DNA from: a virus
Lineage: Duplodnaviria > Heunggongvirae > Uroviricota > Caudoviricetes
Strand: one strand, 5' to 3'
Length of the DNA: 15,029 nt
IMG/VR virus record: IMGVR_UViG_2565956714_000007
Location: 1-15,029 of that record
The position numbers were made by a program, and so were the translations under genes. The notes beneath the pieces were generated by a model. It was not told where the DNA came from. It did no database searches and saw nothing but the letters and a program-made list of their open reading frames with translations. The first letter of the stretch is position 1. The number at the start of each line of letters is the position of its first letter. Positions 2,786 to 14,771 of this stretch are shown here, piece after piece.

Positions 2786-3108
2786 TGATACCCTCTCTCA
2801 CTTAATCGCGCCCACGCTTCGTTAAACTCTTCTCGGGTTGCGCCGGATTTTCTTTCTTCAAACATCATGCATTCGCTGATGTCTCCCCATGACTTTGGTC
2901 GCTTTTCAGCGAACAGATCATCCCATTCGAATACCCAGCGTCCTGATTTTCGGTAGTGGTAAATGGTCAGCCATGTTGTGCTGTTCGCTGGATACCCATA
3001 GAGAACTTCGACTTTTTGATCACGGTCTTTATGCTTTTTCAGCAGGATAAAGCCAGCAACCAGCGAAGCTCCGGCAAGAATGATGATTGGAATTTGCCAG
3101 TCAGCCAC
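2782..3108 (-). CDS. Hypothetical membrane-anchored protein (108 aa, GTG start)
   Basis: N-terminal hydrophobic helix (IPIIILAGASLVAGFILL) followed by a charged soluble domain. RBS GGGAG/AGGGAAG upstream of the GTG. Occupies the ninA position between ren and ninB. Confidence 0.5.
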   Translation of the reverse strand: MADWQIPIIILAGASLVAGFILLKKHKDRDQKVEVLYGYPANSTTWLTIYHYRKSGRWVFEWDDLFAEKRPKSWGDISECMMFEERKSGATREEFNEAWARLSERGYQ

Positions 3109-3122
3109 ACTTCCCTCTCCCC

Positions 3123-3155
3123 CAAATAAAAAGGCCTGCGATTACCAGCAGGCCT
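3123..3155 (-). terminator. Intrinsic terminator-like hairpin downstream of ren (minus-strand sense)
   Basis: 8-bp perfect stem AGGCCTGC/GCAGGCCT (3132-3139 / 3148-3155) with an 8-nt loop, followed on the minus-strand transcript by TTTTTATTT. Confidence 0.6.
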
Positions 3156-3180
3156 GTTATTAGCTCAGTGATGTAGATGG

Positions 3181-3471
3181 TCATTGCCTTACCTCCATAA
3201 GCGCCCTATTAATAAACGCCGTCATTGGATTTGCACATCCCCACCCCGTACCATCTGGATTTCTTTTAATTGGCTCCTTCTTCACTTTGCGTTTTGCATA
3301 AATAACCGTCTTCCACTTACGCTCAACAACACTCAAATGTCCTTGTTTCACCATATGCCTTGCTGCTTGAGCGATTCTGTTATTTGGTATTCCGGTGATC
3401 AGTGCTAATTCATGTGGGGAGAATTGTTCATGAGTTTTCAGATATTCCAGGATGATTTCTTTTCCAGTCAC
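3181..3471 (-). CDS. ren: Ren-like protein (96 aa)
   Basis: Same length and MTGKE start as lambda Ren, with scattered similarity to my recollection of the lambda sequence. ATGA overlap with the upstream DnaC-like gene. Lies between the replication genes and the nin region. Confidence 0.65.
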   Translation of the reverse strand: MTGKEIILEYLKTHEQFSPHELALITGIPNNRIAQAARHMVKQGHLSVVERKWKTVIYAKRKVKKEPIKRNPDGTGWGCANPMTAFINRALMEVRQ

Positions 3472-4313
3472 GATCTGCTCCTGTAACTATCCCATGTAAA
3501 CGCAAGAGTGCACCCGCCGCCATCATTCATCCTGTCAATAACACGCTCACCAATGAATGCAGACAGTTCATCTTTGCTCTGGTTGCTAATCAGGATTGTT
3601 GGCTTCATGCGCTCGTAGCGGGTGTTGATGATTTCGAACATGATCATCTTTTCCGCCTCGCTTCCAAACTGCACACCAACCTCATCGATAATTAGCAGGT
3701 CAGGTTTAGTGAACTGTCGGATCACTTCATCCTCTGTGCGGGTGGAGTTTTTCGACCATGTTGATTTATATTCTCTGGCAATTTTCAGCGCCGTTGTGAA
3801 AATAGCTGAGCTTTGATGTTCCGTAATTGCGTGCCGGGCGATAGCCAGTGCAAGATGATTCTTTCCAGTACCAGGCTTTCCACACATAACCAGCCCACCG
3901 CCTTTCTGTAACCTCTCAGGCCATTTGCTGGCGTATGCCTGACACACCCTGAGCACTCTCTTTGCATCGTCGTTGACTGGCTCGTAGTTCTGTAGTGTGC
4001 AACCCTTGAATCGTTCAGGAATATCAAGATTATTCAACAGAAACTCGACATTGCGCTTACGTGATTCCTCGTCGATTTTAATCTTCTCTGCCTGTAGCCG
4101 AATAAGCTCATCTCTCATGCATTCCGGGCATTCGCTAGGTCTTGAGGCAAACTTAATTGGCCCAGTCGAGTAACGGTTACGCTGCTCAAACTCACCATGT
4201 TTTTCACAGATGCCAGTGCCAATTTCTACAGATGTATGCTCGATAGCAATTGGCGGAGAACTCAATTCTGCAAGTTTTTTCTCCAGTTGGGAGATCTTTT
4301 CATCCAGCGTCAT
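3468..4313 (-). CDS. DnaC-like helicase loader / IstB-type AAA+ ATPase (replication protein P functional analogue)
   Basis: Walker A GKPGTGKNHLA, Walker B LLIIDEVG and a downstream arginine region typical of DnaC/IstB. Start placed at the second ATG (MTLDEK...), which has GGAG 6 nt upstream and sits 2 nt after the O stop; the track ORF extends to 4331. Confidence 0.85.
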   Translation of the reverse strand: MTLDEKISQLEKKLAELSSPPIAIEHTSVEIGTGICEKHGEFEQRNRYSTGPIKFASRPSECPECMRDELIRLQAEKIKIDEESRKRNVEFLLNNLDIPERFKGCTLQNYEPVNDDAKRVLRVCQAYASKWPERLQKGGGLVMCGKPGTGKNHLALAIARHAITEHQSSAIFTTALKIAREYKSTWSKNSTRTEDEVIRQFTKPDLLIIDEVGVQFGSEAEKMIMFEIINTRYERMKPTILISNQSKDELSAFIGERVIDRMNDGGGCTLAFTWDSYRSRS

Positions 4314-4315
4314 GT

Positions 4316-5158
4316 TCACTCCTGCGCCCATGAAGGCATTTCAGTTTGTCCGTAATCTTTGGTGGCAAAGTTTTCCTGCATAGCTCGATGCTGCGGCCTC
4401 GGTTGAGATTTCCCCTTTGGAGTCTTGGGCTCAAAAATCCCCTGCCAACCACTGGCGATGCTCTGGTTTATAATTTCTTCAGGTGTATATCCCTTCTCCA
4501 GACTTCTGCTTAGAACGTTGATAGCCTGAGTGACACTTTGCTTAGACTTGATCGACTTACCTATCTCCTTGCGATAGGTAACCCACGACAACCATGTTTC
4601 TGCTGATAACCAATCAGGCAACTCTGTTTCTAGCGGGTCGAACTTCTGAGAAACTTTTTTGGGGGATATAGGGGGTTTATTAATATTTTCTTTTGTCTTT
4701 AAAGAATGTCTTTTGTGTGTCTCTAACTTCGAGACATTGAGTGTCTCTAATTTGGGGACATTTTTTGTCTCTAACTTCGAGACAAAGTTGCTAACTTGGA
4801 GACACTTGCTGAATTGCCACGCAGATACCTCACTGTTTACACCGATTTGATTTCCATCCATAAACAGGCAATTCATTGAAATCAGTTCTTTTTTAGCCTT
4901 GTTAACATTCTGCCTTGACAGTCCTGTTAACTGAGCAATTTGCTCATCGGCTATTCGATCTGTTTTCTTATTGAATCCATATGTTTTCCGGACGTAGGCC
5001 AGCATAACTTTCAACTGGCGAGCGGTTAAATCGGCACTTGCGATAGCTTCCAGCAGCTCGTTAGCGAATCTGGTGTAACCATCATCGATATCAGCCACTC
5101 TTCGCTCCTGTTCAACAGGTTCACTCTTCGGCAGGTAAAATACTTCAGCAAGGCTCAT
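4316..5158 (-). CDS. Replication initiator, lambda O-like, with ori iterons inside the coding sequence
   Basis: N-terminal region resembles the phage O N-terminal DNA-binding domain. The central part of the protein (VSNFVSKLETKNVPKLETLNVSKLET) is encoded by the DNA iterons. Start placed at an internal Met (MSLAEV...) with RBS GGAGG; the track ORF extends to 5191 and would overlap the upstream gene by 47 bp. Confidence 0.8.
   Translation of the reverse strand: MSLAEVFYLPKSEPVEQERRVADIDDGYTRFANELLEAIASADLTARQLKVMLAYVRKTYGFNKKTDRIADEQIAQLTGLSRQNVNKAKKELISMNCLFMDGNQIGVNSEVSAWQFSKCLQVSNFVSKLETKNVPKLETLNVSKLETHKRHSLKTKENINKPPISPKKVSQKFDPLETELPDWLSAETWLSWVTYRKEIGKSIKSKQSVTQAINVLSRSLEKGYTPEEIINQSIASGWQGIFEPKTPKGKSQPRPQHRAMQENFATKDYGQTEMPSWAQE
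4718..4804. repeat. Origin of replication: four ~19-bp iterons at ~24-bp spacing, followed by an AT-rich segment (4676-4716)
   Basis: tgtctctaacttcgagaca (4718-4736), tgtctctaatttggggaca (4742-4760), tgtctctaacttcgagaca (4766-4784) and a degenerate copy gttgctaacttggagaca (4787-4804). Each is an inverted repeat TGTCTC...GAGACA. Architecture matches lambda ori inside O. Confidence 0.8.
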
Positions 5159-5789
5159 TTCCAACCTCCGCATCAAAGCATTGGGCTTCAAGAGACTTAA
5201 CCATCACCACACTGCCATCTGTATTAATAACTATCGATGAGTTATATTTGCTTATCAGTTGCTTCGCGTAATCAATTCCGGCGCGAATAAGGAAATTTTT
5301 CACCGCAGGAAGATGACCAACTACACTACCCAGACCTTGCTCTATAAGCTCCTCATTAAGATCAAGCTCATTTTCATGGCGAAAAGAAATGAATGAGTCG
5401 TAAATTGCGTATTCTGCCGTCTCGCCATTTCTTTCAGGGCCAACCAGCGCCCTTATTTCATTTAGAGATTCAGAAAGATCATTATCTTCAAGCTTGAAAA
5501 ACTCTCGATTATCACTAAGCCTCTCTTTTGCAAAGGCTTTATGAATGAGTTTTTCATCTGATGCGGGATTATTTGAATGAAAGGCTGCTATCACCTTAAA
5601 TGGCTTAGGAACGCCAGTAGAGGCTGAAATTTCTTTAGCCCTAACTTCTGGTGAATGCTTAGTCATCCCAATCTTATAAATTCCTGGCATGCACTCATTC
5701 GAAAGCACATAAACAAAGCCATTTGATTTAAAATCATCTGGCACCTTCATGCTCTTCAGAACCTGGAATTTGTCATTTTCGTATGTCAT
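5145..5789 (-). CDS. GIY-YIG-like (T5orf172-type) domain protein, 214 aa; accessory gene inserted between cII and the O-like gene
   Basis: N-terminal GFVYVL...PGIYKIGMT...R..E....P...IH..F...R...REFF pattern matches the T5orf172/GIY-YIG-like nuclease fold; C-terminal ~110 aa unassigned. Strong RBS AGGAG 6 nt before the ATG. Visibly AT-rich relative to cII and O. Confidence 0.7.
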   Translation of the reverse strand: MTYENDKFQVLKSMKVPDDFKSNGFVYVLSNECMPGIYKIGMTKHSPEVRAKEISASTGVPKPFKVIAAFHSNNPASDEKLIHKAFAKERLSDNREFFKLEDNDLSESLNEIRALVGPERNGETAEYAIYDSFISFRHENELDLNEELIEQGLGSVVGHLPAVKNFLIRAGIDYAKQLISKYNSSIVINTDGSVVMVKSLEAQCFDAEVGNEPC

Positions 5790-5823
5790 AATTACTCCTG
5801 TGGATTGATCCAGTCTTTCTACA

Positions 5824-6105
5824 TCAGGCCTCGAAGAATTCGCCGTTCTTCGGGGCTTTTTCTTTTGTCAGGTAATTGGCAAGCCGCTTAGTCAGCTCAG
5901 CCATTTCATCGTCTTCGATTCCGTATTCCAGAACAGCCAGCATCATGCTTACCTGCGAGAAGAAACCATTCTTCCATCGGCTTACCTGATATTCAGGAAC
6001 CCCCATTGCTCGAGCGAATGTCTTCTGCCCCATCAGTGCCAGTTTGTTCAGCAAGGCTGACTCGATGCGAGCCGCTTTCTTGCTTTTAGTTGCAATAGTA
6101 CCCAT
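5824..6105 (-). CDS. cII: CII transcriptional activator (93 aa)
   Basis: Strong similarity to lambda CII (RIESALLNK...SRWK...MLLAVLEYG...DDEMA). RBS AAGGA upstream. Immediately downstream of nutR and cro. Confidence 0.85.
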   Translation of the reverse strand: MGTIATKSKKAARIESALLNKLALMGQKTFARAMGVPEYQVSRWKNGFFSQVSMMLAVLEYGIEDDEMAELTKRLANYLTKEKAPKNGEFFEA

Positions 6106-6112
6106 AGATAAT
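6080..6112 (+). promoter_or_regulatory. Candidate PRE-like CII-activated promoter (TTGC-N6-TTGC box plus -10 GATAAT), antisense to cII/cro and directed toward cI
   Basis: TTGC (6080-6083), ttttag, TTGC (6090-6093) on the plus strand within the first codons of cII, exactly where lambda PRE sits; GATAAT at 6107-6112 is about 17 bp beyond the -35 position. Confidence 0.55.
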
Positions 6113-6181
6113 TTCCTTAATGATTAGATAGAGTTGGCTTCGCAAAGAAACGCAAAACCATAGAGATTTGTTTCTGGTAAT

Positions 6182-6213
6182 GCCCTTTTTCAGGGCGGGG
6201 ATGTGTAAGAGCG
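6182..6213 (-). promoter_or_regulatory. nutR (boxA + boxB) N-utilisation site
   Basis: Minus-strand boxA CGCTCTTAC (6205-6213) followed by boxB hairpin GCCCTGAAAAAGGGC (6182-6196), matching lambda nutR as I recall it; between cro and cII. Confidence 0.8.
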
Positions 6214-6221
6214 TTAATAAC

Positions 6222-6452
6222 TTAAGCGGCCATTAATTCAGGCCAGATGCTTTCCCAATCAACCGGATGAAGGTCTTTGCGAGTCACTTCACCATTGCTG
6301 AACTTCTCAATCAGAACACAAAGTGCTGCGCCCAATTCATGATTACGGCTAAGTGCTTTCCTCAAATAGCCGATAGAAGTTCCGCACTTGGTGGCAAATT
6401 CTCTCTGCTCTTCCAGTGAAAGGGAGTTCAGATACAAGCGGAGTTCTTCCAT
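6222..6452 (-). CDS. cro: Cro-like HTH repressor (76 aa)
   Basis: First gene of the PR operon, divergent from cI. HTH-like segment QREFATKCGTSIGYLRKAL. RBS GGGAAGGAG upstream of the ATG. Confidence 0.7.
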   Translation of the reverse strand: MEELRLYLNSLSLEEQREFATKCGTSIGYLRKALSRNHELGAALCVLIEKFSNGEVTRKDLHPVDWESIWPELMAA

Positions 6453-6484
6453 TTGCTATCTCCTTCCCGTTGTTGAATAAGATG

Positions 6485-6554
6485 AGTTTACCTGTAGGTA
6501 AAAAGCAAATCAATACCCATAGGTTATTTACCGGCAGGTAATCAAAGATAGAAT
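6485..6554. promoter_or_regulatory. OR region: divergent PR (toward cro) and PRM (toward cI) with repressor operators
   Basis: 12-bp operators of form TACCT-NN-AGGTA: TACCTGTAGGTA (6489-6500) and TACCGGCAGGTA (6529-6540), with a degenerate palindrome between (6514-6526). PR on minus strand: -35 TTGATT (6508-6513), 17-bp spacer, -10 TAAACT (6485-6490). PRM on plus strand: -10 TAGAAT (6549-6554) placed so the transcript would start at or near the cI ATG; no SD before cI, suggesting a leaderless mRNA as in lambda. Confidence 0.65.
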
Positions 6555-6560
6555 TAAATC

Positions 6561-7247
6561 ATGGATAAATACGAACAAAGACGACTAAGGCTGATAGAGA
6601 TAAGAGACCGATTCTGTAATGGAAAGGCCTCAGAGTTGGCTCGTCGAATAGAAAGGGAACCATCATACGTTTCCAGAATGCTGTATCCGGAAGGAAAAAG
6701 CGGAAAAAAACGCATTGCTGACGATATGATGGAACTAATTGAAAAATCTTTTAATCTCCCACGCGGATGGATGGACATGCTTGCAGATGGTAAAGCTGGA
6801 GCTACGGACCATCTTGAGTTTGCGGGTAACGTTCGTGCGGGTTTTGTTCCGGTAATTGGTGAAGCCGTTTTGGGAGTTGATGGCTCAGTGGATATGATTG
6901 AATTCAGATCCGGTTGGTTAAGCATCTACAGCGGCGATAAAGATGCTTACGGTCTGAAGGTTAAGGGTGACAGCATGTGGCCAAGGATTCAGTCAGGAGA
7001 ATATGTTGTTATTGAACCAAATACGCCAGTACATCCAGGTGATGAAGTCTTTGTAAGGACCAAAGACGGTCACAACATGATAAAGATCATGAACAAAACA
7101 AGAGACGGTGATTATCAGTTTAGTAGCATAAACAGTGATCACCGCCCAATCACTCTTCCTGTTGAAGAAGTTGATAAAATGCATTTTGTTTCAGCTATTG
7201 TGAAACACACCAGGTACGTAGACCAGGACGATCTGCCAAAAGTTTGA
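6561..7247 (+). CDS. cI: CI repressor (HTH N-terminal domain plus LexA/S24-type autocleavage domain), 228 aa
   Basis: C-terminal S24 peptidase-like region (GDSMWP... with a downstream Lys). Divergent from cro across an operator region. No SD upstream. Confidence 0.9.
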   Translation: MDKYEQRRLRLIEIRDRFCNGKASELARRIEREPSYVSRMLYPEGKSGKKRIADDMMELIEKSFNLPRGWMDMLADGKAGATDHLEFAGNVRAGFVPVIGEAVLGVDGSVDMIEFRSGWLSIYSGDKDAYGLKVKGDSMWPRIQSGEYVVIEPNTPVHPGDEVFVRTKDGHNMIKIMNKTRDGDYQFSSINSDHRPITLPVEEVDKMHFVSAIVKHTRYVDQDDLPKV

Positions 7248-7261
7248 GGATAAAGCAGCAA

Positions 7262-7558
7262 ATGTTTATACCCGGCATAGTAGTCGCTGTTGTAATCATC
7301 TGCTTCATATGGGCAAAGTTATCTCCTGTAAGCTCTAAGCATACAGCTGAACTCATGAGGAAGAAGAATCTTATACATGAGGCAGAATCGATAATTAAAA
7401 AGTTCAAAGGCATGTCATACGACGACATGTCATCAGAGCAGATTGCTATGTATAAATGCGCCATTGAGCGCCTTGACTACTTAAACGGACTCAAACCCAA
7501 ACACACCCCAGTAGAATCAAAATTGCCGCAATGGCCAAGCAATCCAAATAGCTTCTGA
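7262..7558 (+). CDS. Small membrane protein co-transcribed with cI (98 aa from ATG 7262; track ORF begins at TTG 7244)
   Basis: N-terminal TM helix (FIPGIVVAVVIICFIW) then a charged soluble domain. RBS GAGGA ~11 nt before the ATG. Lies between the cI stop and the immunity terminator, the lambda rexAB position. AT-rich. Confidence 0.55.
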   Translation: MFIPGIVVAVVIICFIWAKLSPVSSKHTAELMRKKNLIHEAESIIKKFKGMSYDDMSSEQIAMYKCAIERLDYLNGLKPKHTPVESKLPQWPSNPNSF

Positions 7559-7569
7559 CATCTCCTTTC

Positions 7570-7592
7570 AGCCCGCAAAGCGGGCTTTTTTA
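7570..7592 (+). terminator. Rho-independent terminator ending the cI operon
   Basis: Stem AGCCCGC/GCGGGCT with loop AAA, followed by TTTTTTAT. Confidence 0.8.
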
Positions 7593-7655
7593 TATCAATC
7601 CAAAAAATTAATTACCTGAAAATTCAAGCAGGTAAACTCTCACATCAATTTTATT

Positions 7656-7696
7656 TACCTACAGGTATAGACATGGGTTTTACCTGTAGGTATATT
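7656..7696. promoter_or_regulatory. OL operators and PL promoter
   Basis: Operators TACCTACAGGTA (7656-7667) and TACCTGTAGGTA (7681-7692), centres 25 bp apart, same family as the OR sites. PL candidate: -35 TAGACA (7668-7673), 17-bp spacer, -10 TATATT (7691-7696). Transcript start ATCAGCAGGACGCACTGACC matches the lambda pL leader from memory. Confidence 0.65.
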
Positions 7697-7736
7697 TTAA
7701 GCCATCAGCAGGACGCACTGACCACCATGAAGGTGA

Positions 7737-7767
7737 CGCTCTTAAAAATTAAGCCCTGAAGAAGGGC
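7737..7767 (+). promoter_or_regulatory. nutL (boxA + boxB)
   Basis: boxA CGCTCTTAA (7737-7745) and boxB hairpin GCCCTGAAGAAGGGC (7753-7767), matching lambda nutL as I recall it. Confidence 0.85.
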
Positions 7768-8035
7768 AGCATTCAAAGCAGAAGGCTTTGGGGTGTGGTG
7801 AAGCCAGCTAGTCACTGGCAAGTGCTTACCTACTGTTGAGCGGTGAAGCGCTCCCAATGCTAGCAATAGCGTGGACGAGATGGGGAGCCGCGGGCGATAA
7901 GGCCGCCATAACGCGCACGTTGTCGCATGGAAAAATCGCTGGGGTGCCGGTTATACCCCTCCGAATGAGACTCAACAAGCTGGAGCTAGACTACCAGCCA
8001 CCACACCACCAAAGCTAACTGACAGGAGAATCCAG

Positions 8036-8368
8036 ATGGATGCACAAACACGCCGCCGCGAACGTCGCGCAGAGAAACAGGCTCAATGGAAAGCAGCAAA
8101 TCCCCTGTTGGTTGGGGTAAGCGCAAAACCAGTTAACCGCCCTATTCTCTCGCTGAATCGCAAACCGAAATCACGAGTAGAAAGCGCACTGAATCCGATA
8201 GACCTTACAGTGCTGGCTGAATACCACGAACAGATTGAAAGCAACCTGCAACGTATTGAACGCAAGAATCAGCGCACATGGTACAGCAAGCCACGCAGTG
8301 AAATGGGTGTGACATGCTCAGGCCGCCAGAAGCGACGCGGAAAATCAATTCCAGCTTATTACGATTGA
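8036..8368 (+). CDS. N: Antitermination protein N (110 aa)
   Basis: MDAQTRRRERRAEKQAQWKAANPLLVGV... is essentially the lambda N arginine-rich motif and body; only the C-terminal tail differs. RBS AGGAGAA upstream. Downstream of PL/nutL. Confidence 0.9.
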   Translation: MDAQTRRRERRAEKQAQWKAANPLLVGVSAKPVNRPILSLNRKPKSRVESALNPIDLTVLAEYHEQIESNLQRIERKNQRTWYSKPRSEMGVTCSGRQKRRGKSIPAYYD

Positions 8369-8376
8369 GGTGAGCC

Positions 8377-8541
8377 ATGCTCAAGAAAGTCAAACGCCGA
8401 CTTTACAAAGAAGGTAGATATTCATGCCAATTGCCAAAATGCGACACAACAAAATGGAGTGTCGATGATTGGTGTAACTGGATAGATAGATACGGAACTT
8501 GGTGGGAACGTATTTATTTTCGCGGCAAACCACTTATTTGA
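8377..8541 (+). CDS. Hypothetical small Cys/Trp-rich protein (54 aa)
   Basis: Hand-translated ORF MLKKVKRRLYKEGRYSCQLPKCDTTKWSVDDWCNWIDRYGTWWERIYFRGKPLI with RBS GAGGTG 5 nt upstream. Below the ORF-track length cutoff. Confidence 0.4.
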   Translation: MLKKVKRRLYKEGRYSCQLPKCDTTKWSVDDWCNWIDRYGTWWERIYFRGKPLI

Positions 8542-8549
8542 GGTGAGAT

Positions 8550-8801
8550 ATGGAATTTCATGAAAGTGCGATTTGTGATTTTCGCGCTAACGCAAATTCA
8601 GTAAAACCACAGCCAATTGCAGTTCTTTTTAAAACAATGGGTGCGTGGGCTGTTTTATGCTTCGCCGCTGATGACACTGACGCAAGAATGGCAATAGGCC
8701 AAGAGATGGAGATGGACCCGACAAACGATGAATTCATAATTTATGGCGCTCCATCTAATTACTTACTTGATACCTGCAACATTTACAACAAGGCTGCCTG
8801 A
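8550..8801 (+). CDS. Hypothetical protein (83 aa) in the pL operon
   Basis: ORF with RBS GAGGTGAGAT before the ATG, the same RBS context as the preceding small ORF. No recognisable motifs. Confidence 0.5.
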   Translation: MEFHESAICDFRANANSVKPQPIAVLFKTMGAWAVLCFAADDTDARMAIGQEMEMDPTNDEFIIYGAPSNYLLDTCNIYNKAA

Positions 8802-8860
8802 TGGTGGCCTTTATTTTTTAGCCGTAAATAATTTCATGCTTATTACAATCAAGGTGATAT

Positions 8861-9226
8861 ATGGAAGAACAAGCAAACAAGATTCTCGTAGAACTACTGC
8901 AAAAAGCCAGCAATGGAATAGACGCGGCTGTTTCATTTAGCCAGGCACAGATTCCTGATGTCATCCATCAGCTTTTGATGTGGCACGCCGTATCATCAGC
9001 TGGAATTCAGGCTATCTGTGTATTGGTGATTATAGCGTGTGTTTATCTGATGATTTTTGCATGGAATAAAGGAGATGATGCAGATATTGTTCTTTTATCA
9101 CTACTTGTTACATCAGGAATAGCGATTACTTCTATTGTTGTTTTCTTCAATTATTTCGACTGGCTGAAAATTTGGCTGGCCCCAAAACTTTACCTTATCG
9201 AATATGCAGCATCATTGGTTAAGTAA
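8861..9226 (+). CDS. Two-TM small membrane protein (121 aa) in the pL operon
   Basis: Two hydrophobic helices (AGIQAICVLVIIACVYLMIFAW and IVLLSLLVTSGIAITSIVVFFNYF). RBS AAGGTG before the ATG. Lies in the N-to-cIII interval where lambda carries sieB/ral-type accessory genes. Confidence 0.6.
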   Translation: MEEQANKILVELLQKASNGIDAAVSFSQAQIPDVIHQLLMWHAVSSAGIQAICVLVIIACVYLMIFAWNKGDDADIVLLSLLVTSGIAITSIVVFFNYFDWLKIWLAPKLYLIEYAASLVK

Positions 9227-9375
9227 TTTCAGGCCGCATAATCGTCCTTTATTTTTGGCATAAACAACAGAATAAACACTGCACTGTGTATTCATTCCAA
9301 CGAGTGAATACACGGAGCAATGTCGCTCGTAACTAAACAGGAGCCGACTTGTTCTGATTATTGGAAATCTTCTTT

Positions 9376-9399
9376 GCCCTCCAGTGTGAGGGCCTTTTT
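9376..9399 (+). terminator. Intrinsic terminator-like hairpin upstream of cIII (tL-type)
   Basis: GCCCTC (9376-9381), loop cagtgt, GAGGGC (9388-9393), then CTTTTTA. Expected to be read through under N antitermination. Confidence 0.55.
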
Positions 9400-9465
9400 A
9401 TATGCATACCAATAACGCTTCACTCGAGGCGTTTTCGTTATGCAATCAAATATAAGGAGTTACCC

Positions 9466-9600
9466 ATGATGCACTTTCAGCTCGCGGGTAGCGGCGTCAT
9501 GTCCGCTTTCTACCCGCACGAATCTGAATTATCACGCCGAGTTAAACAATTAATTAGAGCAGCAAAGAAACAACTGGAGGCGTTATGCGCAATGAAATAG
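9466..9600 (+). CDS. cIII: CIII-like protein (44 aa; inhibitor of FtsH-mediated CII degradation)
   Basis: MMHFQLAGSGVMSAFYPHESELSRRVKQLIRAAKKQLEAL resembles the lambda CIII amphipathic core (ESLLERITRKLR...) as I recall it. RBS AAGGAG upstream. Start placed at an internal Met of the 79-aa track ORF. Confidence 0.6.
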   Translation: MMHFQLAGSGVMSAFYPHESELSRRVKQLIRAAKKQLEALCAMK

Positions 9601-9737
9601 CCATTAATCACCAGATGCTTCGTGCGGCACAAAACAAAGCAGTAATAGCCAGATTTATTGGTGATTCAAAAATGTGGCTTGAAGCAAATAAAGCGATGAA
9701 ATCAGCTATCAACCTTCCGTGGTATCGCAGGAAATGA
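9585..9737 (+). CDS. Kil-position small protein (50 aa)
   Basis: Hand-translated ORF MRNEIAINHQMLRAAQNKAVIARFIGDSKMWLEANKAMKSAINLPWYRRK with RBS GGAGG upstream. Overlaps the cIII 3' end in another frame, as kil does in lambda. Assignment is by position and size only. Confidence 0.4.
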   Translation: MRNEIAINHQMLRAAQNKAVIARFIGDSKMWLEANKAMKSAINLPWYRRK

Positions 9738-9904
9738 GTTTTACAGATAACTGGTCAGACGAAGAATTCATTCGTCAGATGAAAGAATTAATCGGTAACG
9801 AAGGAGATATTCATGTCACTTGCAACCACAGTGAAGGAGAGCAAGTTACAGAGACGCATGTACACGCAGCAGGCGTTAATGTATCGCCAGAAGGGAGATC
9901 GTGA
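9734..9904 (+). CDS. Hypothetical acidic small protein (56 aa)
   Basis: ATG overlaps the preceding stop (ATGA). Start taken at the internal Met (MSFTDN...) of the 61-aa track ORF. No recognisable motifs. Confidence 0.4.
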   Translation: MSFTDNWSDEEFIRQMKELIGNEGDIHVTCNHSEGEQVTETHVHAAGVNVSPEGRS

Positions 9905-9991
9905 AGGTGTTCGCGTATTTTTAAATGCGGCAAAGACTGAAGTATTAAATCAGCGTTATTTCCTTGGGCCATGTCCATTCTGAGGTGAATT

Positions 9992-10699
9992 ATGGATTTG
10001 AACAAATTCGATGAGCCATTCAGCCCTGAAGATATCGAATGGCGAATACAGCAAAGCGGTAAAACACGCGATGGCAAGGTGTGGGCTATGGTGCTGGCTT
10101 ATGTCACGAACCGGGCAATCATGAAGCGCCTGGACGATGTTTGCGGCAAAGCAGGATGGCGCAATGAATACCGCGATATTCCCAACAACGGCGGAGTTGA
10201 ATGCGGCATATCAATAAAGATTGATTCCGAATGGGTAACCAAATGGGATGCTGCTGAAAACACGCAGGTAGAAGCCGTCAAAGGCGGTCGTTCCGGTGCA
10301 ATGAAGCGCGCTGCCGTTCAGTGGGGAATCGGTCGGTATCTGTATAACCTTGAGGAAGGTTTTGCACAAACATCTCTCGATAAAAAGCAGGGATGGCACA
10401 GGGCAAAACTCAAGGATGGAACAGGATTTTACTGGCTCCCTCCATCGCTGCCGGGATGGGCAATCCCAGCATCAGATAACAAACCATCACCAGAAAATAC
10501 CAACCAGAAATCTCCATCGGTTGACTGCGAACAAATCCTGAAAGACTTCAGCGATTATGCGTCAACAGAAACTGACAAGAAAAAACTCATCGAGCGTTAT
10601 CAGCGTGACTGGCAATTAATGGCTGGCAACGAGGAGGCGCAGGCTAAATGCGTTCAGGTAATGAACATCAGAGTTAACGAACTAAAACAGGCGGCATAA
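9992..10699 (+). CDS. Rad52/Rad22-family single-strand annealing protein (235 aa)
   Basis: Collinear Rad52-type pattern: ...GW...(20)...G.ECGISI...AAEN...GGRSGAMKRAAVQWGIGRYLYNL. RBS GAGGTGA upstream. Directly followed by ssb. Confidence 0.75.
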   Translation: MDLNKFDEPFSPEDIEWRIQQSGKTRDGKVWAMVLAYVTNRAIMKRLDDVCGKAGWRNEYRDIPNNGGVECGISIKIDSEWVTKWDAAENTQVEAVKGGRSGAMKRAAVQWGIGRYLYNLEEGFAQTSLDKKQGWHRAKLKDGTGFYWLPPSLPGWAIPASDNKPSPENTNQKSPSVDCEQILKDFSDYASTETDKKKLIERYQRDWQLMAGNEEAQAKCVQVMNIRVNELKQAA

Positions 10700-11173
10700 A
10701 TGGCAAGCAGAGGCGTAAATAAGGTGATCATTATTGGTCGCCTTGGGCATGATCCAGAAATCAGATATTCACCATCAGGAACGGCATTTGCAAACCTTAC
10801 CGTTGCTACGTCAGAACAATGGCGTGATAAGAAAACTGGAGAGCAAAAGGAGCAGACGGAGTGGCACCGCGTGGTAATGAGCGGGAAACTGGCAGAAATT
10901 GCCAGCGAATATCTGCGAAAAGGCTCTGAGGTTTATCTTGAAGGCAAATTGCGGACAAGAAAATGGCAGGATCAAAGCGGACAGGATCGGTTCACTACCG
11001 AAGTCATCGTGGGCGTTGGTGGAACCATGCAAATGCTTGGTGGCAAGCAAGGAGGCAATGAACAGTCTTCACCTCAGCGAAATAATGGTCAGCAACAAAG
11101 ACAGCAACCTCAGCAGCAGGGAAATCACAGCGAACCACCTATAAACTTCGACGATTCGGATATTCCGTTCTAG
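10700..11173 (+). CDS. ssb: Single-stranded DNA-binding protein (157 aa)
   Basis: OB-fold N-terminal region ([17 protein letters not shown]...WHRVV), Gly/Gln-rich linker and acidic C-terminal tip DDSDIPF. Confidence 0.9.
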
Positions 11174-11182
11174 GAGCTGAAT

Positions 11183-11662
11183 ATGAAAATCTGCTCAAGA
11201 TGCCATCAACCGAAGGAAGAAAGGGACTTTCAAATCAGAAGAGCATCCAGAGATGGATTAACTGCCGCTTGCCGGGCTTGCCTGGCTGAATATGACAAAG
11301 AGCGCGCGGGATTGCCACATCGAGTATCAGCAAGGAGAGAATATCAATCATCGGAACGCGGCAGAGAACGGTGTAACGCAGCCAAAAAGCGGTTCATTCA
11401 GAGCAACCCATGGAAAAGAAAAGCCCACATCATCGTGGGTAATTTTTTGCGCGACGGTAAGCTAATCCGACCACCACAATGTGAGTGCTGCGGATCAGAA
11501 TGTAAACCACAGGCGCACCACTGCGACTACAGCAAACCAACCGATGTGATGTGGCTCTGCAAGTCATGTCATGTCGAGTGGCACAAACATAACAAACCTA
11601 TCTACCCAGACGAGGAGCCAGTAACTCTCCCCTTCCCTCGTCACGCTATTCACGCAATTTAA
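11183..11662 (+). CDS. HNH endonuclease-like zinc-binding protein (159 aa)
   Basis: N-terminal CxxC...CxxC zinc ribbon. C-terminal HNH-type motif CECCGSECKPQAHHCDYSKP...WLCKSCHVEWHKH. RBS AGGAG upstream. Confidence 0.7.
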   Translation: MKICSRCHQPKEERDFQIRRASRDGLTAACRACLAEYDKERAGLPHRVSARREYQSSERGRERCNAAKKRFIQSNPWKRKAHIIVGNFLRDGKLIRPPQCECCGSECKPQAHHCDYSKPTDVMWLCKSCHVEWHKHNKPIYPDEEPVTLPFPRHAIHAI

Positions 11663-11670
11663 GGACTTAC

Positions 11671-12219
11671 ATGAATCACTTGATGGTTGACCTTGAAACA
11701 ATGGGCAACGGGCCATACGCGCCAGTTATTTCTATTGGGGCGGTATTCTTTGACCCGAATACCGGAGAAACAGGAGAAGAGTTCTCGGTAAATATCTCGC
11801 TTGAATCATCAATGCGATATCGAGCGCGTCCTGACGCTTCAACGATTTTATGGTGGCTGGAACAGAGTGAAGAAGCCAGGAAATCGCTAACCAGCAACAC
11901 TCAGGAGCTTTCAACGGCTCTTTCATGGTTATCTGAATTCATCATAAAGAACGCTAACCACAAATTCGTTCAGGTTTGGGGGAATGGAGCATCATTTGAC
12001 TGCGTTATTCTCCGCAACAGTTATTCGCTGACAGGGCAGCCAGTTCCGTGGCAGTGGTGGAATGACCGCGACGTAAGAACAATCGTCGAACTTGGGAAGG
12101 CAATAGGATTCGACCCTAAGCGAGATATGCCATTCAAAGGAACTCGCCACAACGCTCTTGATGATGCCATTCACCAAGCCAAATACGTTTCAGCGATCTG
12201 GAAAAAGTTAGCTAAATAA
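11671..12219 (+). CDS. DnaQ-like DEDDh 3'-5' exonuclease (182 aa)
   Basis: Exo I motif MVDLETMG, Exo II motif GNGASFDCVIL and Exo III motif HNALDDAIHQAKY, in order. RBS AAGGA upstream. Confidence 0.8.
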   Translation: MNHLMVDLETMGNGPYAPVISIGAVFFDPNTGETGEEFSVNISLESSMRYRARPDASTILWWLEQSEEARKSLTSNTQELSTALSWLSEFIIKNANHKFVQVWGNGASFDCVILRNSYSLTGQPVPWQWWNDRDVRTIVELGKAIGFDPKRDMPFKGTRHNALDDAIHQAKYVSAIWKKLAK

Positions 12220-12235
12220 TCAACAGGAGAAAACC

Positions 12236-12532
12236 ATGCCAGCGCCTCTGTATGGTGCGGATGACCCGCGCCGCTGTTCCGGCAATTCCGTATCGGAGGT
12301 GCTGGATAAATTCAGAAAAAACTACGACCTGATAATGTCTCTACCGCAGGAAACGAAAGAGGAAAAGGAATTTCGCCACTGTATATGGCTTGCAGAGAAA
12401 GAAGAACGCGAGCGAATTTACCAGACATCAATCCGACCATTCCGCAAAGCCACATATACCCACTTCCCTGAATATATCGACCCGCGCCTGCGTAATTACC
12501 GCTCACGCTATGGCGCTATCAGTAATGACTGA
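12236..12532 (+). CDS. Hypothetical protein (98 aa)
   Basis: ORF with RBS AGGAGA before the ATG. No recognisable motifs. Confidence 0.5.
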
Positions 12533-12542
12533 GGAATTTACC

Positions 12543-12710
12543 ATGAGAGGACTTGCATACAATCCCGGCATTCTTCCGGCAGAAATGATTATTCGCCAAC
12601 GCGTAAAGCCAATGCCATCGAGAGAGGAATTGCTTAAGAGAAAGAGTTTCGGTTCTGTTAATGACAACAAATATCTGAATGCGATGTTGCGCAAAGGAGG
12701 CAACCGGTGA
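12543..12710 (+). CDS. Hypothetical protein (55 aa; internal start of the 106-aa track ORF)
   Basis: ATG preceded by RBS GAGGAA. The upstream part of the track ORF overlaps the 98-aa gene in another frame and lacks an RBS. Confidence 0.4.
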
Positions 12711-12840
12711 CTGGACATGCAGCGATCCTCGACATGTGCTGTGGCAGTCGCATGTTCTGGTTAGATAAGAATGACGAACGGGCGAGATAAGCGATCGGTT
12801 AAGTGCTATAGTAATGCGCTTTTGTATTTATGGAGTGAAT

Positions 12841-13539
12841 ATGAAAAATATCCTACTGGCATCATTGTTAGTGGCATCGCCGGGTGCATTTGCAGCCAGC
12901 TTTGACTGCCAAAAGGCTTCGACAGCAATCGAACATAAAATCTGCGATAACGAACGTCTGTCAAAATTAGACGAACAGCTTAGCTCTGCCTATTCTAGTG
13001 CCCTCAAAGAAAACCCAGAGAACGCAGACACCATAAAAATGGTTCAACGTCAGTGGGTAAATATGCGTGGAAAACTCACTGATAATAAGGCTCTGGAGCT
13101 GGCTTATCTTATCCAAATTAATGGCCTCAAAGGTTTGGGGAGTTCAGTCAGCGTAACAGCGGCCAATGAGATACCCACGTCGACGCAGAAACATTCTGAA
13201 GAGCAGGAAGAAACAAGTAAGGCAGAAGTTAAGTCGGTCAAGAACGGCAATAAGCTAACCTTAGAGTCATTCCGAGCTAAATATGTAGAAGTAGATGGTG
13301 AGTATTACAGCACGACATCCATTCCTAGAGGCAGTTCGTTCTTGTTCACTTGCGCCAGTCGTATTGCTGATGACCAAGTGAATGTTTGGAAGAAACATGC
13401 AGCCAAAGAGGGCAAAATCGACCTATTCTTTGAGGTTGAGAATCACTTACACACTGCTATGTTGAACGCCAATTTCCAGAAGTTGAATTCAGACCCTGCC
13501 AAAAGAGGTATTTGTAATCTGATTAACGCAGTGCCGTAA
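12841..13539 (+). CDS. Secreted DUF1311 (LprI N-terminal-like) domain protein, 232 aa with signal peptide
   Basis: Signal peptide MKNILLASLLVASPGAFA. DUF1311-like motif FDCQKASTAIEHKICDNERLSKLDEQLSSAY...QRQWV. RBS GGAGTG before the ATG. Start taken at M10 of the track ORF. Followed by a hairpin. Confidence 0.7.
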   Translation: MKNILLASLLVASPGAFAASFDCQKASTAIEHKICDNERLSKLDEQLSSAYSSALKENPENADTIKMVQRQWVNMRGKLTDNKALELAYLIQINGLKGLGSSVSVTAANEIPTSTQKHSEEQEETSKAEVKSVKNGNKLTLESFRAKYVEVDGEYYSTTSIPRGSSFLFTCASRIADDQVNVWKKHAAKEGKIDLFFEVENHLHTAMLNANFQKLNSDPAKRGICNLINAVP

Positions 13540-13549
13540 GTAAATTTAG

Positions 13550-13580
13550 GGCCACAGTTGTGGCCTTAAATATTTTTTCA
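13550..13580 (+). terminator. Terminator-like hairpin after the secreted-protein gene
   Basis: GGCCAC (13550-13555), loop AGTT, GTGGCC (13560-13565); the T-run TATTTTTT begins ~9 nt later, so this is a weaker terminator. Confidence 0.4.
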
Positions 13581-13745
13581 GCCTTTTCTTATTTGTAATA
13601 AGCAGTACTTAGTAGTGCTTATAAAACAGAATAAAAAACATATGACTTTGGCGATTACCCAGTAAAGATATTCGAAATAAATGTAAATATCGGCAATGAA
13701 TAACAATCCTCGCACTCGCGGGGATTTCTTTTATATGGGGATAAT

Positions 13746-14546
13746 ATGACCATCCACTTTCACGGCAGCCCAATATGGGGGGATGAGCATGCCCCTACAG
13801 ATATGCTGATTAAAGCCCTTTACCGTGATGGTGGGGCTTTTGTTTCATTTGCCAGACCAGAGCAGATGAAAAAGATTGCCATGTTCCCTTGTGATATACG
13901 CCTTGATAACGGTGCTTTTAGCGACTGGATGAAAGCATTAAAGAAAGGCACTCCGGTAGACTGGAGTAAGAGACGAGCAAAATTCTACGACTTTGTTGGG
14001 AAGTGGTTCAGCAGAATTGAATGGTTTCTTATACCTGACGTTATCGAAGGGACAGAGGCAGAAAACGACGAGCAGATTGAGTTGGTTCCTGATTGGCTAA
14101 AATCAAAAGCGGTTCCGGTCTGGCATACCGACGAATCAATTGAACGTCTTTTACGCCTTTCTAGCAAATTTGAATGGGTGGCGATTGGATACTGCGGACC
14201 ACACAGGCACATACGCTCTAAATGGTGGGAACAGAGAATGGATGAAGTTTTCACTGAGCTTTATATCAATCGTAATTTGAAAGTGAAAATTCATGGTCTT
14301 CGAATGCTCGACGTGAGAGTTCTTGGTATGTATCCGTTCGCCAGTGCGGATTCTACTAATGTTGCTGTTAACGTACCGAAGACAGAGAAGCGATTTCCTG
14401 AGATTACCGACAAACTGGCACGCACAGCTGTACTTCGCGCTGCTATTGAAAAGGTGCACCCGCCATCGATATCAGCATGGGTAGACAGAAAGATGAGAGA
14501 GCCGGCGCAAGCCGGTTTTTTATTTGAATTCACCGACGCCGCTTAA
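13746..14546 (+). CDS. Candidate TGT-superfamily (DpdA-like) transglycosylase, 266 aa; standalone accessory gene
   Basis: Collinear resemblance to the TGT catalytic motifs: LDNGAF (cf. DSGGFQ), FLIPDVIEG (cf. IFDEC), WVAIGYCG (cf. YAVGGLAVG), KIHGL (cf. MGVG), FASADSTNV (cf. FDCVMPTRN). No C-terminal Cys/His zinc site. Own AT-rich upstream region with a 25-bp palindrome and a downstream terminator. Family call is from by-eye motif matching only. Confidence 0.45.
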   Translation: MTIHFHGSPIWGDEHAPTDMLIKALYRDGGAFVSFARPEQMKKIAMFPCDIRLDNGAFSDWMKALKKGTPVDWSKRRAKFYDFVGKWFSRIEWFLIPDVIEGTEAENDEQIELVPDWLKSKAVPVWHTDESIERLLRLSSKFEWVAIGYCGPHRHIRSKWWEQRMDEVFTELYINRNLKVKIHGLRMLDVRVLGMYPFASADSTNVAVNVPKTEKRFPEITDKLARTAVLRAAIEKVHPPSISAWVDRKMREPAQAGFLFEFTDAA

Positions 14547-14565
14547 TGCGGATTTCTTTTATCTG

Positions 14566-14590
14566 AACTCGCTACGGCGAGTTTTGTTTT
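14566..14590 (+). terminator. Rho-independent terminator after the 266-aa gene
   Basis: AACTCGC (14566-14572), loop TACG, GCGAGTT (14577-14583), followed by TTTTGTTTT. Confidence 0.7.
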
Positions 14591-14603
14591 ATGGAGATGA
14601 TAA

Positions 14604-14771
14604 ATGCACTTCCGAGTAACAGGTGAATGGAATGGAGAACCATTCAACAGAGTTATCGAAGCAGAGAACATCAACGACTGCTATGACCACTGGATGCTGT
14701 GGGCGCAGATGGCACATGCAGACGTAACCAATATTCGAATTGAAGAACTGAAAGAACACCAAGCCGCCTGA
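14604..14771 (+). CDS. Hypothetical small protein (55 aa)
   Basis: Hand-translated ORF MHFRVTGEWNGEPFNRVIEAENINDCYDHWMLWAQMAHADVTNIRIEELKEHQAA with RBS GGAG before the ATG; ends inside a terminator hairpin. Confidence 0.4.
   Translation: MHFRVTGEWNGEPFNRVIEAENINDCYDHWMLWAQMAHADVTNIRIEELKEHQAA

Follow-up and report, generated by a model that had tools for sequence, protein, structure and literature searches.

Three horizontally shuffled accessory cassettes between N and cIII in the pL operon of a lambdoid phage

In phage lambda, the interval between the antiterminator gene N and cIII carries the accessory genes ral, sieB and ea10. Two of the proteins encoded in this neighborhood have host targets, with cIII acting on FtsH and kil acting on FtsZ. 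Small membrane exclusion proteins of phages include T4 Imm, SieB of lambda and P22, and HK97 gp15-type proteins; P22 SieA and HK97 gp15 block superinfecting phages at the inner membrane. Accessory genes of this kind have recently been screened with a 200-gene library (Silas et al., bioRxiv 10.1101/2023.04.06.535777; Nat Commun 2025, PMC12373910), and Ral-labelled regions rank 2, 11 and 14 among its top-scoring accessory regions (PMC12373910). As members of this library, proteins identical to two of the three analyzed here, UDP0060 (ORF2) and UDP0047 (ORF3), have been synthesised and screened, while ORF1 is not part of it (PMC12373910). Neither UDP0060 nor UDP0047 is among the conditional-lethal or counter-defence genes reported for the ECOR screens (PMC12373910).

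Our analysis concerned a stretch of 15,029 nucleotides (nt) of a Caudoviricetes virus (IMG/VR record IMGVR_UViG_2565956714_000007, positions 1 to 15,029), here referred to as the window. In the pL operon of this P22-like/lambdoid phage, three open reading frames lie on the plus strand with N upstream and cIII downstream: ORF1 (8377-8541, 54 amino acids [aa]), ORF2 (8550-8801, 83 aa) and ORF3 (8861-9226, 121 aa). A preliminary description of the window, made from its letters, had already placed three small genes in the N-cIII interval. The ORF list agrees exactly with the span and lengths it gave, and the flanks are also as it described them; its statement that the lambda interval holds ral, sieB and ea10 agrees with the lambda record. 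The N gene (8036-8368, plus strand, 110 aa) was identified by its matches to Pfam N36 (PF11438, E value of 1.3e-26) and to phrog_271. The operon is driven from the pL start and nutL region at 7703-7797 (plus strand), all 95 nt of which are identical to lambda 35489-35583, a segment that contains the annotated nutL. The downstream boundary of the interval is cIII (9466-9600, plus strand, 44 aa), whose identity is based on its translation (MMHFQLAGSG...RAAKKQLEALCAMK) and on annotated cIII at the equivalent position in relatives, namely, in the Sf6 annotation and, likewise, in the PGAP calls for matching E. coli genomes. Kil (9585-9737) comes after cIII.

Inspection of the sequence revealed a GGTGA Shine-Dalgarno motif ahead of each of the three ORFs, where the window reads tGAGGTGAgccATG, tGAGGTGAgatATG and cAAGGTGAtatATG, respectively. 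The Shine-Dalgarno motif of ORF1 contains the stop codon of N (TGA) and that of ORF2 contains the stop codon of ORF1 (TGAGGTGA); the N-ORF1 and ORF1-ORF2 spacers are 8 nt each. On the sequence evidence, ORF1, ORF2 and ORF3 are real genes, each of which matches over its full length a catalogued phage family of unknown function. All sources annotate the homologues as hypothetical, searches of NCBIfam yielded no significant match and sequence searches of the PDB no match for any of the three proteins, and we found no functional report in the literature on DUF5484, on the PHROG identifiers of ORF1-3 or on Sf6 gp34 and gp36.

It could be argued that at least one of the three ORFs is spurious and that the real feature is noncoding (the terminators or boundaries) or lies on the other strand, since PGAP leaves ORF1 unannotated in the listed RefSeq E. 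coli genomes and phage HK633 annotates the stretch differently. We consider this extremely improbable. The full-length HMM matches, purifying selection and the fact that lambdoid and T4-like phages share a conserved ORF1 all argue against it, the longest minus-strand ORF of the list in 8377-9226 has 59 aa, and an Rfam search of 7500-9700 returned only sub-threshold noise. The HK633 difference is itself a 1-bp deletion or an annotation artefact: the 129-aa and 58-aa proteins annotated there were rejected as the true structure because of a 1-bp deletion at the equivalent of window position 8797, and the ORF3 frame is present intact in HK633.

The interval is best read as three independent, horizontally shuffled accessory cassettes, none of them housekeeping. 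A blastn map assigned separate ancestries to 8332-8552, 8522-8831 and 8785-9399, with the joints located in the 3′ ends of genes. The last 6 codons of ORF1, together with the next ribosome-binding site, come from the 3′ terminus of an N gene of the HK633 type, which places a recombination joint near 8522; the 9-residue tail of ORF1 beyond its conserved core was taken from an N gene 3′ end and is shared with Bas106. Similarly, the last ~5 codons of ORF2 and the hairpin downstream of them have their homologue at the 3′ end of lambda and Sf6 ral. The ORF3 cassette (8832-9245, plus strand) amounts to 414 bp that lambda, mEp234 and VT2-Sakai lack, an insertion flanked by an imperfect direct repeat of ~22 bp (8808-8831 and 9246-9267). 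Accordingly, in blastn alignments positions 1304-1260 of lambda L010 match window 8785-8831 and positions 1281-1124 match 9246-9403.

The distribution of the three genes agrees with the earlier characterization of them as uncharacterised accessory genes in a variable interval: they are absent from lambda (all three) and from many relatives and are freely recombined with other cassettes. Among 5426 complete E. coli genomes, ORF1 was found in 145, ORF2 in 403 and ORF3 in 238. Of the 80 IMG/VR loci in which a homologue was recovered, 75 have ORF3 downstream of N, with varying partners. The exact order N-ORF1-ORF2-ORF3-cIII is rare and occurs in a single one of the 80 loci. Within phage records and complete E. 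coli genomes, no entry covers at least 80% of the queried stretches.

A terminator scan detected an intrinsic-terminator-like hairpin followed by a T run at 8790-8821 on the plus strand (hairpin at 8790-8811), with a 9-bp stem and a UGAU loop (RNA fold of −13.9 kcal/mol, z of −2.2). This hairpin overlaps the ORF2 stop codon. Going downstream from pL, it is the first terminator of the window, with ORF1 and ORF2 ahead of it and ORF3 behind it; its equivalent in mEp234 is annotated as a rho-independent terminator. Two further terminator-like hairpins (9376-9393 and 9414-9433, plus strand) are situated in the noncoding, lambda-homologous stretch upstream of cIII, and by blastn coordinates the former corresponds to the annotated tL2A of Sf6. 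Ahead of ORF3, a consensus scan, which an atypical promoter could escape, found no sigma-70-like promoter in 8812-8860. The only promoter-like site in the vicinity (8713-8740) precedes the terminator, and the best −10-like hexamer ahead of ORF3, chosen by eye, has no usable −35.

This arrangement suggests a schedule of expression in which pL would transcribe all three genes after infection or induction. Because ORF1 and ORF2 are upstream of the first terminator and packed behind N, they would be immediate-early proteins, synthesised alongside N. ORF3, because it sits behind the terminator and lacks a recognisable promoter, would be delayed-early, requiring N antitermination, and is predicted to be silent in a repressed lysogen. 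Taken as a whole, the locus is best explained as a set of shuffled pL-operon cassettes, expressed with this timing and serving putative roles in conflict, a reading to which we assign a probability of roughly 0.55.

According to the preliminary description, no motif could be assigned to any of the three proteins. This is incorrect for ORF1, which scores 46.5 bits with Pfam DUF5484 (PF17583; the T4 gp55.4 family), above the gathering threshold of 27 (E value of 3e-12), with residues 5-42 aligned to profile positions 3-41 of 43, and which also belongs to phrog_1871 (E value of 1.7e-22). The protein is basic (pI 9.7) and its core comprises residues 1-45, over which Sf6 gp36, encoded at the same position of its pL operon, is 96% identical. 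ORF1 also has ~50% identity with the gp55.4 proteins of T4-like phages, and homologues were found in ~1000 T4-like phage records; the T4 gp55.4 gene is located in the 55-nrdH cluster, whereas ORF1 is part of a temperate-phage early operon. An alignment of ORF1 with Sf6 gp36, RB69 gp55.4 and homologues from Klebsiella and Enterobacter phages contains 14 invariant columns, and K6, R7, G13, Y15, P20, K21, T24, W27, W32, I36, D37 and G40 are invariant in lambdoid and T4-like members. The protein had been described as Cys/Trp-rich, and its 54 aa do include 3 Cys and 5 Trp; the family keeps the Trp, but the Cys are not conserved, T4-like members having L/I, G and I in place of the three. For this reason, a zinc-binding role was rejected. 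ORF1 is best regarded as a presumptive small, basic, Trp-containing early protein.

ORF2 matches phrog_2471 from end to end (E value of 1.4e-61, residues 1-83 on 1-83 of 83). This family is tiny, restricted to enterobacteria and present in few Enterobacteriaceae, and an exhaustive profile HMM search of 1.84 billion representatives retrieved only ~5 genuine relatives; matches to two giant repeat proteins were discarded as spurious, their score being summed over repeats. ORF2 is 100% identical to mEp234 gp34 (AFM76313.1), to VT2-Sakai orf20, both of which occupy the same pL operon position, and to the HK633 copies. Compared with diverged homologues, its dN/dS is 0.12. Its AlphaFold2 model (pLDDT of 54) is unreliable and too poor for a fold search.

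Judged from its genomic context, ORF2 is an alternative occupant of the ral slot. Like lambda Ral, it is encoded after N (or N and sieB), ends in ...NKAA codons and is followed by the hairpin terminator. In the 80 IMG/VR loci, ORF2 (7 loci) and ral (17 loci) never occur together, and in a Salmonella phage (ABTNLsp11242) ORF2 follows N and sieB, at the position expected for ral. In place of ral, ORF2 would most likely provide an alternative counter-defence or host-takeover protein. One specific version of this proposal is that ORF2 counteracts restriction in place of Ral, working as an acidic DNA mimic or as a modulator of restriction-modification, for which its mutually exclusive occupancy of the slot, the 3′ boundary common to ORF2 and ral, its acidity (pI 4.2, net charge of −7) and its presumably immediate-early place upstream of the first terminator could be adduced. 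ORF2 differs from Ral in being strongly acidic and, in this phage, in lying upstream of the first terminator. Against the proposal, alignment to Ral gave an hhalign probability of 0.2%, i.e., no similarity, and neither Pfam nor NCBIfam provided a match that would link ORF2 to Ral. Because of this and of the unreliable model, the argument of "same slot, same kind of job" amounts to guilt by position only. The family is, moreover, limited to few Enterobacteriaceae, and the identical UDP0060 is not among the reported ECOR-sensitising genes, although Ral, Ocr and ArdA scored. Anti-restriction by ORF2 is therefore improbable in our estimation, and its absence from the reported hits weakens the broader counter-defence reading too, for the hosts and phages tested.

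ORF3 belongs to phrog_3054, the Sf6 gp34 family (E value of 9e-47), and all 8 diverse family members tested (8/8) match the same PHROG; Sf6 gp34 has the ends in common with ORF3 and the same position in the pL operon. Its homologues form 574 clusters and occur in temperate as well as virulent phages of Gammaproteobacteria (rV5/phi92-like, N4-like and Vibrio phages); in the virulent phages, the gene is found in early or DNA-metabolism gene regions. The AlphaFold2 model comprises helices at residues 2-70, 74-97 and 100-120 and forms a transmembrane (TM) hairpin, and for the 100% identical protein of SPN9CC (AEW47744.1), likewise encoded at this pL operon position, a published table lists a TMHMM count of 2. 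The earlier prediction of a two-TM membrane protein is thereby upheld. Fold matches of the model were to generic helical hairpins. Counts of K and R favor an N-in/C-in topology for alleles with short loops and are tied for alleles with long loops.

The conservation of this family is concentrated at its two ends. Residues 1-45 and 99-121 are conserved and near-invariant, while the TM hairpin and loop between them (46-98) are variable; F26, Q30, P32, Q37, L38, W41 and the WLKIWLAPKLYLIEYAASLVK tail are invariant, and in the alignments this extends even to the proteins of Vibrio, N4-like and rV5/phi92-like phages. In the hairpin any hydrophobic sequence is tolerated, and its loops range from 7 to ~45 aa across the family. 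In enterobacterial temperate phages, unrelated core types are found inside the conserved frame: grouped at 50% identity, 41 proteins fall into at least 10 core types, with ends that are 83-100% identical, and many E. coli genomes match the ORF3 gene at its two ends only. With respect to diverged homologues, dN/dS of ORF3 is 0.29, and that of the C-terminal segment is 0.05. The value for the variable core is 0.36 with saturated dS, and because of this the core may reflect weak constraint on a membrane anchor and recombination rather than an arms race.

We propose that the conserved N- and C-terminal helices, located on the same, probably cytoplasmic, side of the membrane, carry a function common to the family and that the TM hairpin, together with its loop, is swapped in cassette fashion. 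ORF3 would then most likely take part in phage-phage or phage-host conflict at the inner membrane during lytic growth, either by T4 Imm-like exclusion or by interference with a membrane-bound host factor. The preliminary description had nominated ORF3 as a candidate exclusion or host-modulating factor. In favor of this are its early-operon location, its probable inner-membrane placement and its variable hairpin; speaking against an exclusion gene expressed in the lysogen are the missing promoter, the place behind a terminator in the repressed pL operon and the lack of similarity to SieB, Imm or PADLOC entries. Neither ORF3 nor 35 family members matched the T4 Imm family PF14373 at E values up to 1, and hhalign gave a probability of 0.1% both for T4 Imm and for Salmonella-phage SieB. 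In the comparison with PADLOC 2TM defence effectors, the best hits of ORF3 (E values of 0.059 and 0.089, ~10.5-10.8 bits) were not significant and covered the hydrophobic hairpin only. As in lambda, where sieB is located within the N-cIII interval, ORF3 is found in this interval. Nevertheless, SieB has ~190 aa and is encoded between N and ral on the strand opposite to pL, whereas ORF3 has 121 aa and is encoded on the plus strand, and 8377-9226 contains no SieB-type minus-strand ORF of more than 59 aa. What distinguishes ORF3 from Imm and SieB is the combination of conserved termini and a swappable hairpin, with no match in PADLOC or Pfam.

Two other candidates were considered and dismissed. 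A holin or antiholin function was rejected on the grounds that ORF3 is part of the early-left operon and not of a lysis module and that none of the holin families of Pfam was matched by 35 family members. A two-gene module formed by ORF3 and the ~320-aa gene found behind it in Sf6, N7 and HK633 was rejected as well because the neighbors elsewhere are unrelated: downstream of ORF3 homologues in other phages are an AAA ATPase, a DUF2800 nuclease or a collagen/YadA-anchor protein, and in lambdoid phages the partners of ORF3 vary freely.

The shape of the ORF3 cassette could also indicate a moron that is expressed in the lysogen and acts at the inner membrane to exclude superinfecting phages, in the manner of P22 SieA or HK97 gp15. 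The cassette is inserted between genes that are adjacent in relatives, as a moron would be; a terminator closely precedes it, and terminator-like hairpins come after it; the product is a small two-TM protein, and its hypervariable hairpin and loop could determine specificity. A moron should, however, also possess its own promoter, and the consensus scan found no sigma-70-like one in the 48 nt from the terminator to the start codon. The gene is, furthermore, within the repressor-controlled pL operon, it resembles no known Sie protein, and its homologues in virulent rV5/phi92-like, N4-like and Vibrio phages belong to phages that have no lysogenic state. No protective phenotype is reported for it from the screen, although that screen was insensitive to exclusion phenotypes (PMC12373910). 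We hence regard lysogenic exclusion by ORF3 as unlikely.

Somewhat less unlikely, and possible in our view, is that ORF3 is a host-takeover factor whose cytoplasmic helices bind a conserved inner-membrane or membrane-associated machine of Gammaproteobacteria, the hairpin being a mere anchor. Examples of such a target would be a protease or a division or secretion component. The persistence of the terminal motifs from E. coli to Vibrio phages, next to a hairpin that is tolerant in sequence and loop length, is in line with this proposal, as are the early or DNA-metabolism gene regions in which virulent phages carry the gene and, here, the neighboring cIII and kil. An anchor role, on the other hand, does not obviously explain why there are many discrete recombining cores with near-identical DNA ends, and no neighbor gene is conserved across phages. 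Nor is the identical protein reported as conditionally lethal in ECOR hosts, in a figure that does not show genes lethal in all hosts (PMC12373910). Returning to conflict at the inner membrane, its most far-reaching form is that PHROG 3054 constitutes a class of inner-membrane conflict proteins that is widespread among phages of Gammaproteobacteria but has gone unrecognised, in which the terminal helices perform a common job and the recombining hairpin provides specificity, for example, for the phages to be excluded or for a membrane-bound host sensor to be evaded, and which temperate and virulent phages may both use. We advance this form as rather doubtful.

The genes, their families and their status as part of an accessory region had been documented before. 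The finding, though correct, is an ordinary one, because the families had been catalogued and the ORF2 and ORF3 proteins had been included in a published screen with no phenotype reported for either. With two of the three genes screened, it adds little to what was documented. Two by-products are nevertheless of use. The first is a base-level map of three cassettes joined via in-frame boundary sequences at gene 3′ ends, in which the N tail is reused by ORF1 and the ral tail by ORF2. The second is the architecture of the ORF3 family, with near-invariant termini and a freely exchanged TM core across very different phages, and if this architecture does encode conflict specificity, the family would offer a tractable allelic series.

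The window corresponds to the early region of a P22-like/lambdoid phage, with Escherichia phage CurroJimenez_Bas106, Shigella phage Sf6 and Escherichia phage N7 as its top overall matches; since the best relatives cover only 45-59% of the window each, the genome is a mosaic. On the plus strand, the ORF list placed a cI-type repressor at 6561-7247, followed by a pL start/nutL stretch (7703-7797) that is 100% identical to lambda and by the N gene (8036-8368; Pfam N36, E value of 1.3e-26). Next come the three small genes of interest, ORF1 (8377-8541, 54 aa), ORF2 (8550-8801, 83 aa) and ORF3 (8861-9226, 121 aa), and then cIII (9466-9600), identified by its own translation and by the annotated cIII at the equivalent position in relatives. 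The gene kil (9585-9737) precedes two small 'recombinase' ORFs, erf and ssb, all on the plus strand. The G+C-rich leader (55-57% GC) separating nutL from N also holds a 60-aa ORF (7836-8018, plus strand), whose Bas106 equivalent bears a hypothetical-protein annotation; it has no PHROG match and may not be a true gene.

Judging from their sequences, ORF1, ORF2 and ORF3 are all true genes. Their frames agree exactly with those given in the preliminary description, and the ribosome-binding sites that it had pointed out were found as GAGGTGA, GAGGTGA and AAGGTGA, respectively, 3-4 nt upstream of the three ATGs. Furthermore, the TGA stops of N and ORF1 fall within the Shine-Dalgarno sequence of the following gene, with spacers of 8 nt. 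ORF1 scores above the Pfam DUF5484 gathering threshold (46.5 versus 27 bits) and also matches phrog_1871, ORF2 aligns end to end with phrog_2471 (E value of 1.4e-61), and ORF3 matches phrog_3054 (E value of 9e-47) and has 574 homologous clusters in a large protein collection. On these profile matches, we assign ORF1 to DUF5484, ORF2 to PHROG 2471 and ORF3 to PHROG 3054. The dN/dS ratio was 0.12 for ORF2, compared with a 76%-identical Salmonella-phage copy, and 0.29 for ORF3 overall, with 0.05 for its C-terminal segment. Minus-strand ORFs across the three-gene stretch do not exceed 59 aa, and an Rfam search of 7500-9700 returned no match. The earlier reading of uncharacterised accessory genes was right; the families are catalogued without a function, and the genes are carried on three mosaic cassettes.

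ORF1 is a basic protein (pI 9.7) that contains five Trp residues. Its DUF5484 relatives (gp55.4) are encoded in about 1000 phage records, most of them T4-like; RB69 gp55.4 is ~50% identical to ORF1, and 14 alignment columns are invariant over the lambdoid and T4-like members. The description of ORF1 as Cys/Trp-rich held in part: W27 and W32 are invariant, whereas C17, C22 and C33 are replaced by L/I, G and I in the T4-like homologues, so a conserved metal site can be ruled out. Among the papers searched for DUF5484, none mentions the family. ORF1 DNA occurs in 145 of 5426 complete E. coli genomes, and PGAP placed no feature beneath the match in any of the 12 RefSeq E. coli rows listed, so this small gene seems to be commonly missed. 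The 90%-identity cluster holding ORF1 is represented by an unrelated 90-aa 'antitermination protein N', apparently an artefact of how that protein collection was clustered.

Mapping by blastn onto seven annotated relatives resolved three cassettes. The first (8332-8552, ORF1) is common to Sf6, Bas106 and N7. The ORF1 counterpart is 45 aa long in Sf6 (gp36) and 54 aa in the window and Bas106, because in the latter two an HK633-type N gene supplies, from its 3' end, the last six codons (GKPLI-stop) and the next ribosome-binding site, with the joint near 8522. The second cassette (8522-8831, ORF2) is common to HK633, mEp234 and VT2-Sakai, where ORF2 directly follows N and is itself followed by a hairpin annotated in mEp234 as a rho-independent terminator; homology to the 3' end of lambda/Sf6 ral extends over the last ~5 codons of ORF2 (NKAA-stop) and this hairpin. 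Compared with lambda, mEp234 and VT2-Sakai, the third (8832-9245, ORF3) is inserted DNA; it is edged by an imperfect ~22-bp direct repeat and gives way to a lambda-like noncoding stretch with a tL2A-type hairpin (9376-9393). HK633 is annotated with 129-aa (gp43, 2526-2915) and 58-aa (gp42, 3025-3201) proteins over the region corresponding to 8550-9226. We rejected this as a gene structure, since HK633 lacks 1 bp at the place corresponding to window 8797, a deletion that joins ORF2 to out-of-frame sequence and hides ORF3, whose complete 121-aa frame is encoded by HK633 DNA. Within a noncoding stretch 97% identical to the lambda ral-ea10 interval lies a 14-bp perfect stem (9284-9315; -24.9 kcal/mol, z of -5.9), which has no T run and is therefore not an obvious terminator. 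Many relatives, among them Sf6, N7, HK633 and mEp234, carry a 300-322-aa gene (Sf6 gp33 type), in which no Pfam domain was found, between the tL2 terminators and cIII; the window has no such gene, and cIII directly follows the terminators.

ORF2 is acidic (pI 4.2, net charge of -7), and its AlphaFold2 model is unreliable (pLDDT of 54). A word-indexed search revealed a very narrow family of 19 clusters, all from Enterobacteriaceae and mostly at least 70% identical. A search of 1.84 billion representatives with the ORF2 profile, run exhaustively, yielded essentially one more relative besides two spurious repeat proteins. Comparison with Ral revealed no similarity. Nevertheless, ORF2 is a positional alternative to Ral: a Salmonella P22-like phage has it in precisely the place expected for ral, behind N and a sieB on the opposite strand, and of 80 IMG/VR loci with ORF3, 17 had Ral, 7 had ORF2 and none had both. 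Though no Ral homologue, ORF2 may act in the same arena.

The first terminator-like element downstream of pL is a hairpin at 8790-8811 (9-bp stem, -13.9 kcal/mol, U run). ORF1 and ORF2 lie upstream of it, tightly coupled to N, and should be immediate-early; ORF3 lies behind it, with no sigma-70-like site detected by consensus scan between 8812 and 8860, and should depend on N, as expected from the established N antitermination of lambda. None of the three would be transcribed from a repressed prophage. We therefore consider a membrane role in the lytic cycle more likely for ORF3 than a lysogen-expressed one. As in a moron, an autonomous insertion of promoter, gene and terminator, ORF3 is inserted DNA, but the scan found no promoter of its own. 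Near the repressor, in the 'rex slot', a gene at 7244-7558 (plus strand) overlaps the cI-type stop and encodes a 98-104-aa protein with one N-terminal transmembrane (TM) helix that matches phrog_10450 (unknown function); a strong terminator-like hairpin (7570-7586) follows. This gene is likely cotranscribed with the repressor in lysogens and is a better candidate than ORF3 for a lysogen-expressed exclusion or defence gene.

The prediction that ORF3 is a two-helix membrane protein was borne out by AlphaFold2 (pLDDT of 76), which placed an N-terminal segment and TM1 in a long helix (2-70), TM2 at 74-97 and a C-terminal helix at 100-120, and by the two TMHMM segments reported for an identical protein. 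Fold searches gave nothing informative among the matches. K+R counts favoured an N-in/C-in orientation for short-loop alleles and were tied for long-loop alleles. We rejected SieB (~190 aa, encoded on the opposite strand, no similarity), T4 Imm (no similarity), a PADLOC 2TM effector (no significant model match) and, by position and family, a holin.

Two of the three genes had already been screened, and identical proteins and catalogued families exist in public records. According to Supplementary File 3 of Silas et al. (bioRxiv 10.1101/2023.04.06.535777), UDP0047 (AEW47744.1, Salmonella phage SPN9CC) is identical to ORF3 and UDP0060 (AFM76313.1, mEp234) to ORF2. Both were among 200 accessory genes synthesised from high-scoring accessory regions, of which Ral-labelled ones rank 2nd, 11th and 14th; the available text does not state the source region of these two genes. 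In ECOR strains expressing the library genes, conditional lethality and sensitisation to eight phages were scored; orf47 and orf60 are absent from the genes reported with phenotypes in that preprint and its follow-up (PMC12373910). As the authors state that exclusion phenotypes were picked up only erratically, this negative result weighs more against counter-defence by ORF2 in those hosts than against the proposed exclusion by ORF3.

Alignment of the ORF3 family showed almost no variation in residues 1-45 and 99-121, including F26, Q30, P32, Q37, L38, W41 and WLKIWLAPKLYLIEYAASLVK, but extreme variation in the TM hairpin and loop, both in sequence and in length (loops of 7 to ~45 aa). These motifs are kept in homologues of 33-44% identity from Vibrio phages, an N4-like Salmonella phage and an ~145-kb Escherichia phage, and so reflect constraint at the protein level and not merely recombination boundaries. 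Enterobacterial temperate phages supplied 41 distinct proteins, in which we counted at least 10 core types at 50% identity, with ends 83-100% identical. At the DNA level, the 149-aa allele shared 91-93% identity with the window at its two ends and 42-45% in its core. Of 238 E. coli genomes with a match, many align over the two ends of the gene alone (~48% of the query), while the alignment reaches 80% or more of the query in 43. Together with a much higher synonymous divergence in the core, this pattern is one of old core alleles swapped inside a constant frame, not of point mutations under recent positive selection. In three unrelated virulent phages, the genes that follow the ORF3 homologue are mutually unrelated, and partners in lambdoid phages vary freely, so ORF3 is a stand-alone cassette. 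It is this family architecture, conserved termini around a swappable core, that is the only feature here with some potential.
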